Below the pieces are notes generated by a model, which was not told the origin of the DNA, did not search any database, and worked only from the letters and a program-made list of their open reading frames with translations. Below are positions 31,303 through 39,223 of a stretch of DNA of 61,855 nucleotides, piece by piece (position 1 is the stretch's first letter; each line of letters starts with the position of its first letter). The stretch covers positions 1-61,855 of the forward strand of contig CAISZK010000230.1 in NCBI GenBank assembly GCA_903889915.1, given 5' to 3'. The DNA is from an uncultured Bacteroidota bacterium. GTDB lineage: Bacteria; Bacteroidota; Bacteroidia; Bacteroidales; CG2-30-32-10. A program made the translations under genes and the position numbers.

Positions 31303-31353
31303 AATTGCTCATAGTTCAAGTATCAAAGTTTCGTAAAATCTAAATAAATATTG

Positions 31354-32583
31354 ATGAAAAAAATAATTTCTTACACTATCATACTTATTGCTCTTTCAGT
31401 AAACACTGTCAGTGCACAAATAAAAATTCTTTTTGACGCAACCAAAGCCGAAGCTGCAGCCAATGCTGATTGGGTGATTGACGCCGATACCCACAACCTC
31501 ACCTATAGCAATGGTCCTGCACAGACCGGAGGTGATGAATCCAATCCTCAGCGTTATCCCGTTCCTACCCAATCAACAGTTACTTCTTCCACTCCTGAAA
31601 CGTATTGGGAAGGCGGCATTTCTGCATGGGGTATTGATATGGTGAAAAAAGGTTATGAAGTGGAAACACTTCCCCTGGGTGTGCAAATAACTTACGGAAA
31701 TACCGGCAATGCACAGGATCTTTCAAATTACAAAGTGTTCGTTGTTGTGGAACCGAATATTGTTTTCACATCGGCTGAGAAAATTGCAATCCTGGCATTT
31801 GTTCAAAATGGCGGTGGGCTTTTCATGGTTTCTGATCATGATGGCTCTGACCGCAATAACGATGGATGGGATTCACCGCATATCTGGAACGACTTTATGG
31901 ACACCACCGGAACACATCCGTTTGGCATGCACTTTAACTATGATACTTTTTCGCAGACAACAACAAATGTGGCAAACCTTCCCGGCAATCCTTTGCTGCA
32001 TGGTGTTATGGGAAATGTTACTGAAGTGCAGTGGAGCGGCGGTACTTCGATGACACTGAGCACAACCAATAATTCGTCGGTCAAAGGCGTTGTGTATAAA
32101 ACGGGGTCCTCCACAACAGGACTAACAAATGCCCTGGTTGCTTATGCTACTTATGGCAATGGCCGTGTTGTTGGCTTTGGCGACAGCTCTCCCTGCGACG
32201 ATGGAACAGGCGATCCGAATGATCAGCTTTATACAGGTTGGCTTGTTGATGCCGCCGGAAATCACGAAAAGCTTATCGTTAATGCTACGATATGGCTTGC
32301 AGGCAGCACATCAACAATTGCTGAAGAACCGCAACTCTACAATGTTTTGATCAATCAGCTTACTTATCCCGACAAGATGGTGTTTGATATTTCATCGTCC
32401 GATAACATTGATCATTCAACTTTCAGTGTTTACGACCTTCTCGGAAACCAGGTTTCAACAATGGCTGTACCCGATTCAAAAACCGTGGTAATCAATAATG
32501 GCTCACTTAGCAAGGGATTGTATATTTACAAACTGACCGTTAATGGAACTGTTGCTAAAACAGGGAAGTTTGCAATGTTATAA
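31354..32583 (+). CDS. Secreted protein of unknown function with a T9SS C-terminal sorting domain
   Basis: Signal peptide MKKIISYTIILIALSVNTVSAQ. The C-terminus reads FSVYDLLGNQV...LSKGLYIYKLTVNGTVAKTGKFAML. Confidence 0.8.
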   Translation: MKKIISYTIILIALSVNTVSAQIKILFDATKAEAAANADWVIDADTHNLTYSNGPAQTGGDESNPQRYPVPTQSTVTSSTPETYWEGGISAWGIDMVKKGYEVETLPLGVQITYGNTGNAQDLSNYKVFVVVEPNIVFTSAEKIAILAFVQNGGGLFMVSDHDGSDRNNDGWDSPHIWNDFMDTTGTHPFGMHFNYDTFSQTTTNVANLPGNPLLHGVMGNVTEVQWSGGTSMTLSTTNNSSVKGVVYKTGSSTTGLTNALVAYATYGNGRVVGFGDSSPCDDGTGDPNDQLYTGWLVDAAGNHEKLIVNATIWLAGSTSTIAEEPQLYNVLINQLTYPDKMVFDISSSDNIDHSTFSVYDLLGNQVSTMAVPDSKTVVINNGSLSKGLYIYKLTVNGTVAKTGKFAML

Positions 32584-33479: not shown

Positions 33480-34505
33480 ATGAAAGCAATGCTATTGAAT
33501 AATACCTCGTCATTTGAGCAGAATCCAAAACCACTGCATATGGTTGATATTCCAATTCCAATTCCTGTTGAAAAGGAGATCCTTATTAAAATAAAAGCCT
33601 GCGGAGTTTGTCACACAGAGCTTGACGAAATTGAAGGCCGCGCAACACCTTCGTTTTTCCCGATAATTTTAGGTCATCAGATTGCAGGCATCGTTGCACA
33701 AAATGGCGCTAATGCGAATAAATTTAAACCTGGTGACAGAGTAGGAGTGGGGTGGATTTTTTCTTCTTGTGGCAAATGCAGCTTTTGTCTGAGTGGACTT
33801 GAAAATCTTTGTTCTGATTTTAAAGCGACAGGCAAAGATGCCAATGGTGGTTATGCGGAGTATATATGTGTTCCCGAAGTGTCGGCTTTCATTATTCCAA
33901 ATCAGTTCAGCGATGCCGAAGCGGCTCCTTTGCTCTGCGGTGGCGCTATCGGTTATCGTTCTTTAAAACTTGCCAATATCAGGGATGGCCAAACCCTCGG
34001 TCTAACGGGCTTTGGTGCTTCGGGTCACCAGGTTTTGCAACTTTCAAAATTCATGTATCCATCTTCAAAAGTTTTTGTCTTTTCAAGGTCGGAAAAGGAG
34101 AGCCGGTTTGCCATGACTCTTGGCGCTGACTGGGCCGGGCTGACAGATCAAACTCCACCTGAACTCACCGATAGCATTATTGACACCACCCCTGCGTGGA
34201 AACCCATTGTGATGGCTTTGCAGTTCCTGAAGCCCGGCGGACGACTTGTCATCAATGCAATTCGCAAAGAAGACGCTGACAAAGATCAATTGTTGACGAT
34301 GAATTACAGGCAACATTTATGGATGGAAAAAGAAATAAAATCAGTAGCAAATATCACCCGCAAAGACATTGAAGAATTTTTGCCTCTTGCCGCTGCAATG
34401 AATTTGAAACCTACTGTGACAACCATTGCTCTTGAAGATGCAAACCAGGCCTTGTTTGATTTAAAGAAAGGCGGATTGCATGGGGCACAGGTGCTGGTTG
34501 TTTGA
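33480..34505 (+). CDS. Zinc-dependent alcohol dehydrogenase (MDR superfamily)
   Basis: CGVCHTE, GHQIAG, structural zinc CGKCSFCLSGLENLC, and Rossmann motif GLTGFGASGH. Confidence 0.85.
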   Translation: MKAMLLNNTSSFEQNPKPLHMVDIPIPIPVEKEILIKIKACGVCHTELDEIEGRATPSFFPIILGHQIAGIVAQNGANANKFKPGDRVGVGWIFSSCGKCSFCLSGLENLCSDFKATGKDANGGYAEYICVPEVSAFIIPNQFSDAEAAPLLCGGAIGYRSLKLANIRDGQTLGLTGFGASGHQVLQLSKFMYPSSKVFVFSRSEKESRFAMTLGADWAGLTDQTPPELTDSIIDTTPAWKPIVMALQFLKPGGRLVINAIRKEDADKDQLLTMNYRQHLWMEKEIKSVANITRKDIEEFLPLAAAMNLKPTVTTIALEDANQALFDLKKGGLHGAQVLVV

Positions 34506-34522
34506 GATGAAAATCCTCTCAG

Positions 34523-34828
34523 TTATTTTATGACTGGCTCTATTGAAACACAGTTTTCAACACACATCTTAAATTCATCAAGGAAAAATGGATTGATGGA
34601 GTAATTGAGTTTTCGATTTATACGTTTTGTTATCAAAATTTTTCCATTTTTCATATCAACCAAGTATTGTGATACGGTTGGTTTTGGCAAATTCAACAGT
34701 GTTGCAATATTCTTTATTTCCAGTTCCCTCTCTTTTTCAAGCAAAGTGATAATTTTGCAATTTACCGGATGCATAAGGTATCGCAAACTTTTCATAAGGA
34801 ATCGTGCTTTTTCTTTATTGAGTTCCAT
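34523..34828 (-). CDS. ArsR/SmtB-like winged-helix regulator, paralog A1 (101 aa)
   Basis: LRYLMHPVNCKIITLLEKERELEIKNIATLLNLPKPTVSQYLVDMKNGKILITKRINRKLNYSINP fits the ArsR HTH_20 pattern. Confidence 0.7.
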   Translation of the reverse strand: MELNKEKARFLMKSLRYLMHPVNCKIITLLEKERELEIKNIATLLNLPKPTVSQYLVDMKNGKILITKRINRKLNYSINPFFLDEFKMCVENCVSIEPVIK

Positions 34829-34882
34829 AATATTTTTTTTAATGGTTATACGTGAATTTTTATTTTTATGAATAAAGGAAAG

Positions 34883-35197
34883 TCAAAATGTTTCCTTACT
34901 GTTATTGTCTGTGGCGAATATCTCGTCAATTGTTTTCAGCAAGTCTTCATGAAAAGTTTGGTTGATGCTATAAAGTACACTTCTGTCTTCGCGTCTTGTA
35001 AGTAATATCCCACAATCCCTAAGTTCTAAGAGAAAGGGGCGAACAATAGAATTATTAGTTTTTAATTCGTTTGCAATCCTGACAATATCCAATTCTTTCT
35101 CTTTTTCAAGCAAATTCAGAATTCTTTTGTTTGTACCATGTAAAAGACTTTTCAAAAAACTCAGGACAGTCTTCATTTTTTCTTCATTGACGTTCAT
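34883..35197 (-). CDS. ArsR/SmtB-like winged-helix regulator, paralog B1 (104 aa)
   Basis: LKSLLHGTNKRILNLLEKEKELDIVRIANELKTNNSIVRPFLLELRDCGILLTRREDRSVLYSIN. Confidence 0.7.
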   Translation of the reverse strand: MNVNEEKMKTVLSFLKSLLHGTNKRILNLLEKEKELDIVRIANELKTNNSIVRPFLLELRDCGILLTRREDRSVLYSINQTFHEDLLKTIDEIFATDNNSKETF

Positions 35198-35369
35198 AGG
35201 GAATTTCTATCAGTTATCGTAAATTAAATTTCAGATATGAATAGTCTAAATTAGCAATACCATTTGAGAATAAACAACCAATACGTAGTCATCATTTTGG
35301 TGATTATTCATACGTTTAGCATTAGCCCCGGCATTTTGCAGTGATTTTTTCAAGGAATGACGCAAAATC

Positions 35370-35675
35370 CTATTTTATGACTAACTCTATTGCAACACAA
35401 TTTTCAACTTTCTTCTTTAATTCATCAAGGAAAAATGGATTGATAGAGTAAATGACATTTCGACCTTCACGTTTTGATATCAAAATATTTCTTCTCTTCA
35501 TTTCAACCAGGTGATGCGATATGATCGGTTGTGGCAAATTCATCACTTGTATAATATTCGTTACATCCATTTTCTTCTCTTTTTCAAGTAAATTGATGAT
35601 TTTGCCTTTCACCGGATGGATAAGGCAGCGCAAACTTTTGATTGCGTACCGTGCTTTTTCATTACTGAATTCCAT
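35370..35675 (-). CDS. ArsR/SmtB-like winged-helix regulator, paralog A2 (101 aa)
   Basis: About 60% identical to A1 by eye. It has the same C-terminus, NPFFLDE.K..VENCV.IE.VIK. Confidence 0.7.
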   Translation of the reverse strand: MEFSNEKARYAIKSLRCLIHPVKGKIINLLEKEKKMDVTNIIQVMNLPQPIISHHLVEMKRRNILISKREGRNVIYSINPFFLDELKKKVENCVAIELVIK

Positions 35676-35729
35676 ATAATTTTTTTTAAAGTTTATAAAA
35701 TTATTTTCACCTTGCCGGATAAATGAAAG

Positions 35730-36044
35730 TCATTGTTTTTCCATACTGCTATTGCCGGTTGTGAAGATTTCATCAATTATTCCTAGTAATTTTTTATGAA
35801 AATTAAGGTTGAGGCTGTAGAGAATACTTCTGTCTTCGCGCCTTGAAACCAAAATTCCTTTATTGCGCATGTCTATTAGATAATGCGAAACGAAATTATT
35901 TGTAACTCTTATTTCTTTTGCAATTCTGTCAGTATCCAATTCTTTTTCTTGTTCAAGCAAATAGAGAATTCTTTTGTTAGTACTGTTTGAAAGACATTTC
36001 AAAAAGCACAGGGCTGTCTTTGCTTTTTCTACATTGATGTCCAT
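35730..36044 (-). CDS. ArsR/SmtB-like winged-helix regulator, paralog B2 (104 aa)
   Basis: About 60% identical to B1 by eye. It shares STNKRIL.LLE.EKELD and IDEIF.T.N.S. Confidence 0.7.
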   Translation of the reverse strand: MDINVEKAKTALCFLKCLSNSTNKRILYLLEQEKELDTDRIAKEIRVTNNFVSHYLIDMRNKGILVSRREDRSILYSLNLNFHKKLLGIIDEIFTTGNSSMEKQ

Positions 36045-36084
36045 AACAAATTTCTTTAAATGGTCGTAGATTGATTTTCAGAAA

Positions 36085-36411
36085 TTAATTATTTCCAAGA
36101 GTTGTTCTATATTTGGGGTCTTGCATTGTAATGCATTTATCCATTTTCTCAGCCAGATCTTTATGAAAGTCTGGATTGATGCTATAGATCATCCTTCTTT
36201 TATTACGTTCTGAAACCAAAACACCTCTGTCTTTCAGTTCAATTAAATAATGCGACACAACAGGCTGTATCAGTTTAATTTTATTCATAATAGTGTTTAC
36301 ATCCAATGCTTTTTCTTTTTCAAGTAAAGTAATGATCTCCCTGTTTACAGGATGGCAAAGACTGCGCAAAGATTTAATGATGTTGTTTGCTTTTTCTGTG
36401 TTTATTTCCAT
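36085..36411 (-). CDS. ArsR/SmtB-like winged-helix regulator, paralog C (108 aa)
   Basis: Intermediate between the two types: HPVN as in the A type and NPDFHKDL as in the B type. Confidence 0.7.
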   Translation of the reverse strand: MEINTEKANNIIKSLRSLCHPVNREIITLLEKEKALDVNTIMNKIKLIQPVVSHYLIELKDRGVLVSERNKRRMIYSINPDFHKDLAEKMDKCITMQDPKYRTTLGNN

Positions 36412-36775
36412 AATGAAGTTGTTTAAATTGTTTTATTTTTTTTGATTCAGATAATTTTATAAACAAGAAGAACATGCAGGGAGAAAAAGAGTAAATCCTC
36501 CGTAAGCATTGATAAGACTGCATTCTTGGTCAAATAGTTCTAGAAACAGAATTGCTGTTTTAAAACATGGGTACAATATTAAAATAATTTTTCGAGATGT
36601 TGATATTTTTTTTTAAATAATTTCAAATTGGTGAAGTCCGGTTTATTTTAAAATACAATTCGGGCTGTTTTCTTTTAGTTATCGTTTCAACATTTTGTGC
36701 AAATGTGCATGAATGAAATATAGGAAAGCATAGTCAAATTTTGTGATGATTGATTGGTTAAGTTCAATTGATTTT

Positions 36776-39223
36776 TTAACTGAATGGGATGATAACTTTT
36801 ACCCCTGCATTCCTTCCCATGTTATAAATACCACTATGACCTGACCAATTGACGGGGTATTGCTCGAAATATTTCAATCTGCTCAGGTGCGACTGGTATG
36901 CAACATCAGCAATATTATCAATTGTCAGGTTCACTTTTAAAACCACCTTACCTGTTTTATTAATAATATCACTTCCTGCACCGATGTTAAACAGTGTGTA
37001 GCCTGTAGTTGGTGTTTCTGTGTTGTCGGCAAGATAAACCCTGTTTTGTGTTGCATAATGATCCATCTCAACCTTTATGTAGGCAGCAGAAAAACGATGA
37101 AATTTCTTTTTGTTTTCTGCACGTAATTCAGAATGAAAATGCATAGGAGGTATTAGCGGCAAATACTTTGAACTGTCGTTTATAATTACGCCATTCCCTC
37201 CTTTATTCATTGCATAAATAACCGACACTGAATTTTCGAAATGCAGCCAATCGAGCGGATGGGGATGTATGTCAAGATTTGCTTCTCCGCCATACAGCTC
37301 AGCTTGTGATTGCAGAAATTTGAATGTTTGGTTGCCCTGAACAATAATTGAATCGTGCCCCAGATGGTTTAATAATTTTTGATTAAAAATGTAGTTGTTG
37401 ATAATGTTGTAAAAAGTTTCGATGCTGCCTGTGACATATTTTGAATTAAAAAATATCCCCAGATCTTCCTGCAAACTTTGTTCGGGCTTGATTGCTGAAT
37501 TGCCCACCTGATACATATTGGTGCCCGGATGAACACCATTGGCTGATATTTCCGAAATATTCGGCGCCCTGAACCCTTGAGCTACGTTTGCTTTTAAAAT
37601 AAATTTTTTCGAAAGATCGTATGAAACACCAATGCTACCCGAGACACCTGAAAATGTATGTTTGAAATTTGAAAACTCTTTACTGGCTCCGATAGTATCT
37701 GGCGGGCTTACCTGCATATCGAAACCTGTTGCCGGATCAGTGTGTGTGAACATTTGATCATTTGTGAAGAAACGTGTATCATAGCGAAGCCCTGCACTTA
37801 CATCCAACTTTTTAAATGACTTTTTAATGTGCGCAAAAGGTCCGATATCAAACTGATTATAATCAGGAATAATAAATTCCGATCCTTTGTTTTTATTGAT
37901 TTGATACATTCCATTTGAACCAGCAGTTAAATCCCAGCCCTTCATTTCAGGAAAAGAATAGGACGCATCATAAATGAACGAATTTAATACAAGGTAAAGA
38001 CCCGCAACATCGGCTGCCTGCGGATGACTGAATTCCCTGCGTATGTTTTGCTGGAAACCGAGATTCACTCCTAATTTGCCTTCTCCTATGATAAAGTTAT
38101 TTGAAGAATAAATTCTGTAATGCTGCACATGTTGATGAAGCGTTGTAATGTCATAGGTGTTTAATTCCTTGTCCGAAACAATAGGCCTGAAAGTATCGGC
38201 TTCGGTAATTTGTTTTGTAAACTTGCGGGTTGTTGAATCACGGCTGCCATCAGGTATTTCAAGAAGATTATTGTAAATGGAAAAATCCAGATGTGTAAAT
38301 CCCCACTTTTTATTTAAACCAACATCTCCGCTGACATCAGTTTCATCATAAGCAGTTCCATAAACACGTCCGTCAATTTTATCCATATAGTCTTTGGCTT
38401 GTTTGTGCGATATTCTTCCGCTCCAGTTAAACCCGTTTTTGTTACTGGCGATGTTCACTGAATTTCCAATCATGACATTGTTTGTTTGATATTCCATGAG
38501 GAGACTCCCTTTTGTAACACCATTTTCAACTGGTGGAGATGTTAGAAGATTTACAACTCCTGCCAATGCATCAGAACCATAAATGAGGCTGGCAGGCCCT
38601 TTGATGACTTCAATATTGTCAATAGCATATCCATCAATTTCCTCACCATGCTCATCGCCCCACTGCTGACCTTCCTGCCGTAAACCATCGTATAAAGTAA
38701 GAACACGATTATAGCCCAATCCGTGAATAAATGGTTTCGAAACATTGGGACCGGTTGTGACAGCGCTGACACCGGGAAGTTTTGCAATTGCATCAATGAT
38801 GTTCAAACTTTGATTTTGTTCAATGTATTTTAAGTCAATTGAAATTATGGGCACCGGATCTTTCTTTATTTCTGTAGCATTTGATGAACCTGTAACCACC
38901 ACTTCGTTCATTTCCGTAACGGTTGATTCCATTGCAAAATTCATGGATGATGTGGTTTTAAGATCCACTGTTAAAGCGATGGTTTTATAACCCAGAAAAT
39001 TTACCTGCACAAGAACTTTTGTTTTAGGTAGATTTTCAATTTTATAAAATCCGGCAGTATCAGTAACAGCTCCGGACTTTAAATCTGAAATGTAAACTGT
39101 AGCACCTGTAATAGCTTTGCCCGTTTTCATATCACTGACTTTACCTGTAAGTGAGTTTTGTGATCGTGCAGGAATAATAAAAATTGAAAATATTACTAAT
39201 GTAAAAAGGATATTCGTTTTCAT
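36776..39223 (-). CDS. TonB-dependent outer-membrane receptor with an N-terminal carboxypeptidase-regulatory-like domain
   Basis: 815 aa. The N-terminal domain reads LTGKVSDMKTGKAITGATVYISD...GFYKIENLP. The plug reads IEVIKGPASLIYGSDALAGVVNL, followed by a long beta-barrel. Confidence 0.85.
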   Translation of the reverse strand: MKTNILFTLVIFSIFIIPARSQNSLTGKVSDMKTGKAITGATVYISDLKSGAVTDTAGFYKIENLPKTKVLVQVNFLGYKTIALTVDLKTTSSMNFAMESTVTEMNEVVVTGSSNATEIKKDPVPIISIDLKYIEQNQSLNIIDAIAKLPGVSAVTTGPNVSKPFIHGLGYNRVLTLYDGLRQEGQQWGDEHGEEIDGYAIDNIEVIKGPASLIYGSDALAGVVNLLTSPPVENGVTKGSLLMEYQTNNVMIGNSVNIASNKNGFNWSGRISHKQAKDYMDKIDGRVYGTAYDETDVSGDVGLNKKWGFTHLDFSIYNNLLEIPDGSRDSTTRKFTKQITEADTFRPIVSDKELNTYDITTLHQHVQHYRIYSSNNFIIGEGKLGVNLGFQQNIRREFSHPQAADVAGLYLVLNSFIYDASYSFPEMKGWDLTAGSNGMYQINKNKGSEFIIPDYNQFDIGPFAHIKKSFKKLDVSAGLRYDTRFFTNDQMFTHTDPATGFDMQVSPPDTIGASKEFSNFKHTFSGVSGSIGVSYDLSKKFILKANVAQGFRAPNISEISANGVHPGTNMYQVGNSAIKPEQSLQEDLGIFFNSKYVTGSIETFYNIINNYIFNQKLLNHLGHDSIIVQGNQTFKFLQSQAELYGGEANLDIHPHPLDWLHFENSVSVIYAMNKGGNGVIINDSSKYLPLIPPMHFHSELRAENKKKFHRFSAAYIKVEMDHYATQNRVYLADNTETPTTGYTLFNIGAGSDIINKTGKVVLKVNLTIDNIADVAYQSHLSRLKYFEQYPVNWSGHSGIYNMGRNAGVKVIIPFS

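Follow-up and report, generated by a model that had tools for sequence, protein, structure and literature searches.

A tandem array of five diverging ArsR/SmtB-type winged-helix genes in an uncultured lake bacterium of the Bacteroidales

Introduction

Why would a bacterial chromosome carry, side by side, five small and mutually related genes for what appears to be one kind of DNA-binding protein? The question is raised by contig CAISZK010000230.1 of GenBank assembly GCA_903889915.1, which comes from an uncultured Bacteroidota bacterium of the order Bacteroidales and which we analysed over 61,855 nucleotides (nt), hereafter the window. An earlier note on this DNA had drawn attention to five tandem, co-oriented genes arranged C-B-A-B-A, whose products of 101 to 108 amino acids (aa) seemed to be winged helix-turn-helix (wHTH) proteins of the ArsR/SmtB type. 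Here we establish the gene structure, fold, family placement, duplication history, substitution pattern, restricted distribution and unconserved neighbours of this array. We conclude, with moderate confidence, that the locus holds diverging paralogous repressors, that is, a lineage-specific tandem expansion of small, PagR-like wHTH proteins of the ArsR/SmtB superfamily that lack a classical metal site. It is an unusual gene arrangement and not a new kind of system.

Results

Five intact paralogs of two alternating types

The array occupies positions 34523-36411 and consists of five intact, co-oriented open reading frames (ORFs) on the minus strand, which lie exactly where they had been placed, in the transcription order C-B-A-B-A, and whose products contain the consensus pattern first described for them. 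In the same order, the intergenic spacers measure 40, 54, 172 and 54 nt. No internal gap is needed to align the five proteins, which have 19 invariant residues in common; all are small and four of them are basic, with an isoelectric point (pI) of 9-9.7. Protein identity within types reaches 59% for A1/A2 and 57% for B1/B2, compared with 31-34% between A and B, 43-49% between C and A, and 38-40% between C and B. In a gap-free alignment, the two B-spacer-A units are identical at 75% of their DNA positions (B 73%, spacer 69%, A 79%); a repeat finder recovers them in an 847-nt register (repeat D1), and a neighbour-joining tree groups A1 with A2 and B1 with B2 with 100% and 99.5% bootstrap support, respectively. 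Alignment, identities and tree all bear out the proposal of two alternating subtypes and an intermediate, with duplication of a B-A unit.

Freshwater and lake metagenomes assembled independently (ENA, JGI, Logan) contain the array at 99.9% identity. In four lake-metagenome runs we observe no rearrangement joint across the array and only two single-nucleotide polymorphisms in the interval 34300-36900, both of them intergenic (35700 A>G in the B2-A2 spacer and 36735 C>T just downstream of the stop codon of the upstream receptor gene), the five coding sequences being invariant. Because it recurs in independent assemblies without rearrangement joints, the array is not an assembly artefact. None of the five copies carries a frameshift or a stop codon in any assembly.

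Fold and family placement

The arsR family HTH_5 (PF01022) is the best Pfam match of all five proteins, and A2, A1 and C score above its curated cut-off of 22 bits, with 28.0, 24.6 and 22.9 bits, respectively. The best NCBIfam models are those of generic ArsR/SmtB, PagR and SdpR, with every score under its cut-off; for the generic ArsR/SmtB model NF033788, whose cut-off is 55 bits, A2 reaches 54.6 bits and C 43 bits. When a profile of the clade was compared with the PDB, PagR of Bacillus anthracis came first (2zkz, E 7e-17), followed by YgaV, Lmo1102, CzrA, HlyU, BigR and NolR. The AlphaFold2 models of A2 and B2, with a predicted local distance difference test (pLDDT) score of 89.9 and 89.7, show helices at residues 5-19, 21-33, 38-45, 49-61 and 82-91 and strands at 65-70 and 73-78, which corresponds to the order α1-α2-α3-αR-wing(β1-β2)-α5. 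Foldseek places PagR 2zkz first for the A2 model (36% identity) and CadC, NolR and AntR first for the B2 model, and nearly all of the top 50 PDB matches of both are ArsR-family proteins. The Pfam, NCBIfam and PDB profiles, the models and the structural matches agree on the ArsR/SmtB-type wHTH that had been proposed for all five. Fold and profile together assign the array proteins to the ArsR/SmtB superfamily, although their scores lie at or below the curated cut-offs.

They fall outside its defined subfamilies. Their scores amount to 19.4-52.3 bits against a cut-off of 170 for the PagR equivalog NF052532, 29-45 bits against 100 for the SdpR autorepressor model NF033789, and 22-28 bits against 155 for the model of BigR, which represents the thiol/persulfide subfamily. 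Since each defining feature that we tested is absent, including the metal sites described below, we exclude the array proteins from the PagR, SdpR, BigR and metal-sensing subfamilies. Searches with PADLOC and PHROG gave no specific family, only generic wHTH matches (the HTH part of Csa3/CasR, and unnamed phrogs at E 1e-4 or weaker). A defence-system or phage origin was rejected, these matches being merely generic for the HTH.

The B-type proteins have weak NCBIfam matches to Sta1, Sul12a and Lrs14 (E 0.002-0.09), which, together with the basic character of four of the five proteins and the presence of several paralogs that could be expressed together, would fit abundant architectural (nucleoid-associated) wHTH proteins like these archaeal ones. 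We find this extremely improbable: the matches lie far below the cut-offs and are weaker than those to ArsR, PagR and SdpR, the nearest relatives in both sequence and structure are bacterial specific repressors, and the locus was found in no RNA run.

Sensor sites and the Cys motif

The absence of a conserved metal site, claimed in the earlier note, holds for the α3N CxC and for a complete α5 site, neither of which occurs in the array, and fails for one detail, namely that C keeps D81-x-H83. In place of the α3 CxC (ELCVCDL), the array proteins read LLEKEKELD(I/V)x where their Chitinophaga and Pedobacter homologues have LLEKEKELCPCDL. In α5, the D81-x-H83 pair, found in C alone, is aligned with the ligands of CzrA and NmtR and makes up the first half of the site; the B proteins have H83 only and the A proteins none of these ligands. 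The CzrA ligands have a +11/+14 spacing, and the His/Glu pair that follows the DxH in such sites (DxH...HxxH/E) is present in none of the five proteins.

Contrary to what had been thought, the Cys of the VENCV motif is not confined to type A: the corresponding column of C also holds a Cys, and in A1 the CxxxC is complete. This C-terminal CxxxC, located in α5, is 97-99% conserved in a neighbouring Bacteroidales family of ArsR proteins of ~99 aa. Within the array, the two columns are complete in A1, read K...C in A2 and C, and read I/T...I, with no Cys, in B1 and B2. In thiol/persulfide-sensing ArsR proteins (BigR, SqrR, HlyU) a conserved Cys pair is divided between α2 and α5. In the array, no Cys is common to all five copies, and A1 is the only one with Cys in both α2 (C24) and α5 (C89, C93); when C is aligned to BigR, the BigR Cys falls at an insertion and not at position 24. 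The recognition helix differs as well, given that the S-H-H typical of the CxxxC family is fully retained in A2 alone, and that B1 has R53-P54-F55 in place of S-H-H/Y. These columns suggest that the array is progressively losing an ancestral CxxxC, a putative thiol or metal sensor. The large CxxxC family itself (P0154-P0266; loci L018-L022) was found, at the loci inspected, on the downstream side of an adenine deaminase gene and with no obvious partner; its sequence motif makes it a candidate for an uncharacterised sensor of thiols or metals.

Age of the duplication and constraint on the copies

The synonymous distance (dS) is 0.24 for A1/A2 and 0.72 for B1/B2, and the distance of the non-coding spacer is 0.41, whereas the nonsynonymous distance (dN) is 0.24-0.26 in both pairs. 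The dN/dS ratio is 0.36 for B1/B2, significantly below 1 (p<0.001 against 1), and 0.99 for A1/A2. The protein identity of about 60% between the duplicates had been taken as a sign of long retention, an interpretation that these values contradict: because of the silent and spacer distances and the dN/dS ratios, we conclude that the unit duplication is fairly recent and that protein change since then has been fast.

As read from the aligned sequences, the change within the A pair is concentrated in the DNA-reading half of the protein, comprising α3, the recognition helix and the wing. Residues 34-79, the DNA-binding half, have a replacement rate of 0.276, compared with 0.146 in the half formed by α1, α2 and α5 (p=0.017). 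Over α5 and the tail, A1 and A2 are identical at 17 of 22 positions, and A and B at 2 of 22. It is thus mainly this helix, which forms the dimer interface in ArsR/SmtB structures, that sets type A apart from type B.

These data bear on the possibility that the locus is evolutionary noise, its extra copies being redundant, drifting duplicates of a single working regulator that are kept only because they are young, with A1 or A2, and B1, heading to loss. An A-pair ratio indistinguishable from neutrality is consistent with such drift, and so are the limitation of the five-gene array to one near-clonal population, the failure of all five proteins, at 33-55 bits, to reach a family cut-off that is exceeded by the parent family, at 81 bits, the progressive loss of CxxxC and the lack of the recognition-helix signature in B1. 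Yet no copy in any assembly is broken by a frameshift or stop, the B pair is under significant constraint, the interface half of A1/A2 is more conserved than the DNA-binding half, unlike what uniform drift would give, and both types have high-confidence predicted folds. Moreover, at dS values of 0.24-0.72, unconstrained ORFs of 300 nt in DNA of 32% GC would often be expected to gain stops. Overall, we regard this explanation as unlikely.

Paired domains and the heterodimer question

Forty-two of the 150 best representative matches are ArsR-ArsR fusions with two ArsR-like wHTH domains in one chain, whose N- and C-domains form distinct classes according to domain-specific hidden Markov models (HMMs). 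These two-domain fusions (P0004-P0032 and others) are 170-340 aa long and can be described as covalent pseudo-dimers; P0006 has three ArsR-like domains, and P0026 contains a near-exact internal repeat. To our knowledge, no two-domain ArsR-ArsR fusion has been characterised.

Such proteins invite the reading that each B-A pair of the array is an obligate A/B heterodimer, an asymmetric ArsR-type dimer that would be a split version of the fusions. The strict alternation of B and then A with a conserved 54-nt spacer, duplicated as a unit, the type-specific α5, the frequency of fusions with distinct N and C classes among the best matches, and the fact that the only other array found, described below, likewise consists of two diverged paralogs with 48% identity all point in this direction. 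Nevertheless, an assignment of B to the fusion N-domain and of A to the fusion C-domain was rejected, as the scores with the domain-specific HMMs differ by at most 4 bits. The fusions also score lower per domain than the single-domain relatives do, and therefore arose independently; duplication of the unit alone gives the alternation, with no need for functional pairing; and C has no partner. We consider obligate heterodimers a possible but unlikely explanation, and hold just as tentatively its extension, in which B1:A1 and B2:A2 would act on different asymmetric operators and C would represent the ancestral homodimer. Since A1/A2 and B1/B2 keep their type-specific α5 while their reading heads diverge, mixing within the dimerisation classes is also conceivable. 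That the B-A pairs are obligate asymmetric heterodimers and that the five proteins mix within these classes, giving a combinatorial "dimer code" of half-sites at a single locus, is to our mind decidedly doubtful.

Relatives and origin of the array

A profile search of 1.84 billion representative proteins returned 4281 relatives at E<=1e-3 and, at E<=1e-30, three clusters, two of them from the window and the third being P0003. This protein is the best outside match for each of the five (41-59% identity); it comes from another organism, and its identity to C is 59% in a BLAST local alignment and 51% over the full-length alignment. The gene of P0003 adjoins that of a paralog, P0153, which is 48% identical to P0003 and 51% to C, the two being co-oriented and separated by a 63-nt spacer on a 1.7-kb contig (L010) from another metagenome. 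This is the only other tandem pair among the relatives that we inspected; every more distant one is single-copy and lies in an unrelated context, which supports the supposed rarity of such arrays. The nearest populous family is that of the CxxxC proteins, at 30-40% identity. A scan of metagenome contigs gave distant relatives at 28-40% identity, all single-copy, and a scan of genome contigs gave canonical CPC-type ArsR genes beside mer-like genes, which belong to a different subfamily. A word-indexed homologue search with A2 alone recovered A2 itself and nothing else, and our literature searches met with no description of such tandem arrays.

The five proteins are nearer to each other and to P0003/P0153 than to anything else among the 1.84 billion representatives, and their more distant kin, where inspected, are single-copy; the array is therefore a local, lineage-specific expansion, situated in an ordinary chromosomal region of an uncultured Bacteroidales bacterium. 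The GC content at third codon positions (GC3) of its genes, 0.32-0.37, is within the range of the window (0.357 +/- 0.041), their low overall GC being due to amino-acid composition, and no tRNA or mobility genes were found near the array; a foreign origin was rejected on these grounds. The five-gene arrangement is confined to one near-clonal, species-level population, so the suspicion that it might be unique to its strain and decaying proves close to the mark as to distribution and wrong as to decay, no copy being broken.

Elsewhere among the relatives, P0156 and the similar P0009 are encoded next to a VapE-like primase gene and a gene for an HTH protein of the excisionase type (L023-L025, 4001-4294 and flanks). 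The left flank of the P0156 loci varies between contigs and the right flank is constant, a pattern suggestive of the boundary of an integrated mobile element.

Spacers and signals

On the array's strand, no terminator-like site was found, including in the 364-nt region upstream of C. Neither the 40- and 54-nt spacers nor the 172-nt A2-B1 spacer (z -1.2) has RNA structure beyond that of shuffled sequences. Because the spacers are short, none of them folds beyond shuffles, and terminator-like sites are missing from this strand, the five genes would probably be co-transcribed from one or two promoters. No spacer of the array contains a perfect match to the Bacteroidetes -7 motif, and the region upstream of C has one-mismatch matches only. 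The idea that the 172-nt spacer is a decayed gene C or a copy of the upstream region was rejected, as no significant similarity was found. No Rfam family occurs in the window. The C-B2 junction is flanked by a 19-nt imperfect inverted repeat (I7, 36043-36092), whose arms are 79% complementary and separated by 12 nt. Its folding as RNA does not exceed that of shuffled sequences (z -0.19), and an operator role is possible.

Neighbouring genes

The features of the array and its flanks are listed in Table 1. The TonB-dependent receptor gene (36776-39223) is a conserved Bacteroidales gene, its product being 62-69% identical to thousands of proteins. In NCBIfam the product comes closest to models of haem/haemoglobin receptors, without reaching their cut-offs. 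One receptor orthologue (L041) is surrounded by genes for NikR, TOBE and further receptors, a setting suggestive of metal uptake.

The array could then consist of metal- or redox-responsive regulators of the adjacent receptor, with CxxxC (A1), C93 (A2, C) and DxH (C) as sensors. This would agree with its position directly downstream, on the same strand, of a gene of the "iron complex" or haem-receptor type, with the metal-related surroundings of that one orthologue, and with the near-invariance of CxxxC in the neighbouring family and the alignment of the DxH of C with CzrA/NmtR ligands. Set against this, no ArsR-like gene follows the receptor gene at two of its closest orthologue loci (69% and 67% identity), and the gene upstream of the P0003/P0153 pair codes for an unrelated outer-membrane protein; conserved synteny with the receptor was rejected for these reasons. 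Furthermore, no copy has a complete known site, and no partner gene is conserved beside members of the CxxxC family. We judge regulation of the receptor by such sensors very unlikely. No efflux or resistance gene adjoining the array was found.

The weak type IX sorting-domain match of the 410-aa protein fits a Bacteroidota host. The convergent alcohol dehydrogenase is called at 341 aa in some assemblies and at 338 aa in others (window compared with L002/L003), and an msrA/msrB fusion gene further along is called at 350 or 395 aa depending on the assembly; these ORF length differences are probably start-site or strain differences.

Table 1. Coordinates of the array, its spacers and its neighbouring genes in the window.
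Feature	Position	Strand	Description
Gene C	36411-36085	minus	ORF, 108 aa, first gene of the array; ArsR/SmtB-type wHTH with D81-x-H83 and C93
Gene B2	36044-35730	minus	ORF, 104 aa, type B wHTH paralog
Gene A2	35675-35370	minus	ORF, 101 aa, type A wHTH paralog; single C-terminal Cys (C93)
Gene B1	35197-34883	minus	ORF, 104 aa, type B paralog; recognition helix strongly altered; pI 6.1
Gene A1	34828-34523	minus	ORF, 101 aa, type A paralog; sole copy with full C89-x3-C93
Duplicated unit 2 (B2, 54-nt spacer, A2)	35370-36044	minus	675 nt
Duplicated unit 1 (B1, 54-nt spacer, A1)	34523-35197	minus	675 nt
Intergenic region upstream of C	36412-36775	minus	364 nt, AT-rich (27% GC); presumed promoter/operator region
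A2-B1 spacer	35198-35369	minus	172 nt; possible internal promoter
TonB-dependent receptor	36776-39223	minus, upstream of C	CarboxypepD_reg N-domain; stop 364 nt from C
Zinc-type alcohol dehydrogenase	33480-34505	plus, convergent	stop 17 nt from A1 end
410-aa protein	31351-32583	plus	weak matches to type IX secretion C-terminal sorting domain and DUF4350/ABC_transp_aux

Discussion

A model of the locus

The reading that we favour, diverging paralogous repressors, implies the following history. A C-like ancestral gene would have been duplicated locally to give three forms, C, B and A, and later the whole B-spacer-A unit was duplicated again, after which the copies changed quickly at the protein level. 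The present products would be five related dimeric regulators that are predicted to bind DNA and to repress; any ligand is putative. Members of the superfamily form homodimers through α1 and α5 and bind operators with an inverted repeat. Autoregulation by the array proteins is probable. The changes in the reading half suggest operator specificities that have diverged, or are diverging, among the five regulators. The α5 helix, kept within each type and almost wholly different between A and B, would define two dimerisation classes.

Several observations weigh against this reading. The HTH_5 scores of B2 and B1, 20.0 and 19.1 bits, are below the cut-off, and with NF033788 all five proteins (33.4-54.6 bits) remain under theirs. 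B1, whose recognition helix has lost S-H-H/Y and gained a proline, may not bind DNA in the usual way. The A-pair ratio, which cannot be distinguished from 1, matches the expectation for a redundant copy under neutral drift. In the DNA-binding half of this pair dN/dS rises to 1.78, which is not significantly above 1 (p=0.34), two-sequence comparisons having too little power to separate positive selection from relaxation. The deeper nodes of the neighbour-joining tree are poorly supported, with bootstrap values of 7-58%. In the AT-rich spacers we detected neither a convincing promoter or operator nor a palindrome beyond chance expectation, and no RNA run searched contained the locus. Finally, no target genes can be named, and the link between array and receptor is not conserved.

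If all of the paralogs are active, the locus would represent a transcription-factor family caught soon after duplication, with dimerisation helices fixed in two classes, DNA-reading surfaces changing fast and an ancestral Cys motif lost. It would then offer a compact natural case for the study of new regulator specificities and of insulation between paralogs. The analysis also highlights two uncharacterised Bacteroidota groups, the CxxxC ArsR family and the two-domain ArsR-ArsR fusions. At present the locus stands as a lineage-restricted expansion, in a lake bacterium that has not been cultured, of a regulator fold that is well known, and its practical importance is low. The array is best filed as a new, fast-evolving group within a known kind of regulator, of modest significance unless heteromeric or combinatorial behaviour is shown.

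Comparison with known systems

The fusions P0004, P0005 and P0007 belong to the same domain family as the array proteins and are likewise tandem duplicates with diverged halves. By analogy, they show that paired non-identical ArsR domains can work together. They differ from the array in that their domains are covalently joined, and their per-domain similarity to the array proteins is below that of the single-domain relatives.

The Bacteroidales CxxxC family (e.g. P0235, named "metalloregulator ArsR/SmtB family transcription factor" by NCBI) has its length, its H-P motif and its S-H-H motif in common with the array. It passes NF033788 at 81 bits and is single-copy where inspected, whereas the array lies below the cut-off and has mostly lost the Cys pair.

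The metalloregulators CzrA, SmtB, CadC, NmtR and ArsR have the same fold as the array proteins and rank high in Foldseek. The DxH of C aligns with the D84/H86 positions of CzrA, but the second half of the α5 site is missing. The CPC-type ArsR proteins encoded beside mer-like genes in Chitinophaga and Pedobacter have an "LLEKEKEL" stretch that is nearly identical in the array, where the classical α3 CxC is replaced by D-I/V-x.

The closest likeness is to PagR, an ArsR-family repressor of Bacillus anthracis (2zkz, 99 aa), whose minimal length and α1-α2-α3-αR-wing-α5 layout are matched by the array proteins and whose recognition-helix motif, "PQSTVSQHL", is similar to theirs. PagR has neither an α3N nor an α5 metal site, and in the array these classical sites are absent or incomplete. 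The pagR gene is co-transcribed with pagA on pXO1. PagR is encoded by a single gene, whereas the array comprises five tandem paralogs of two or three types.

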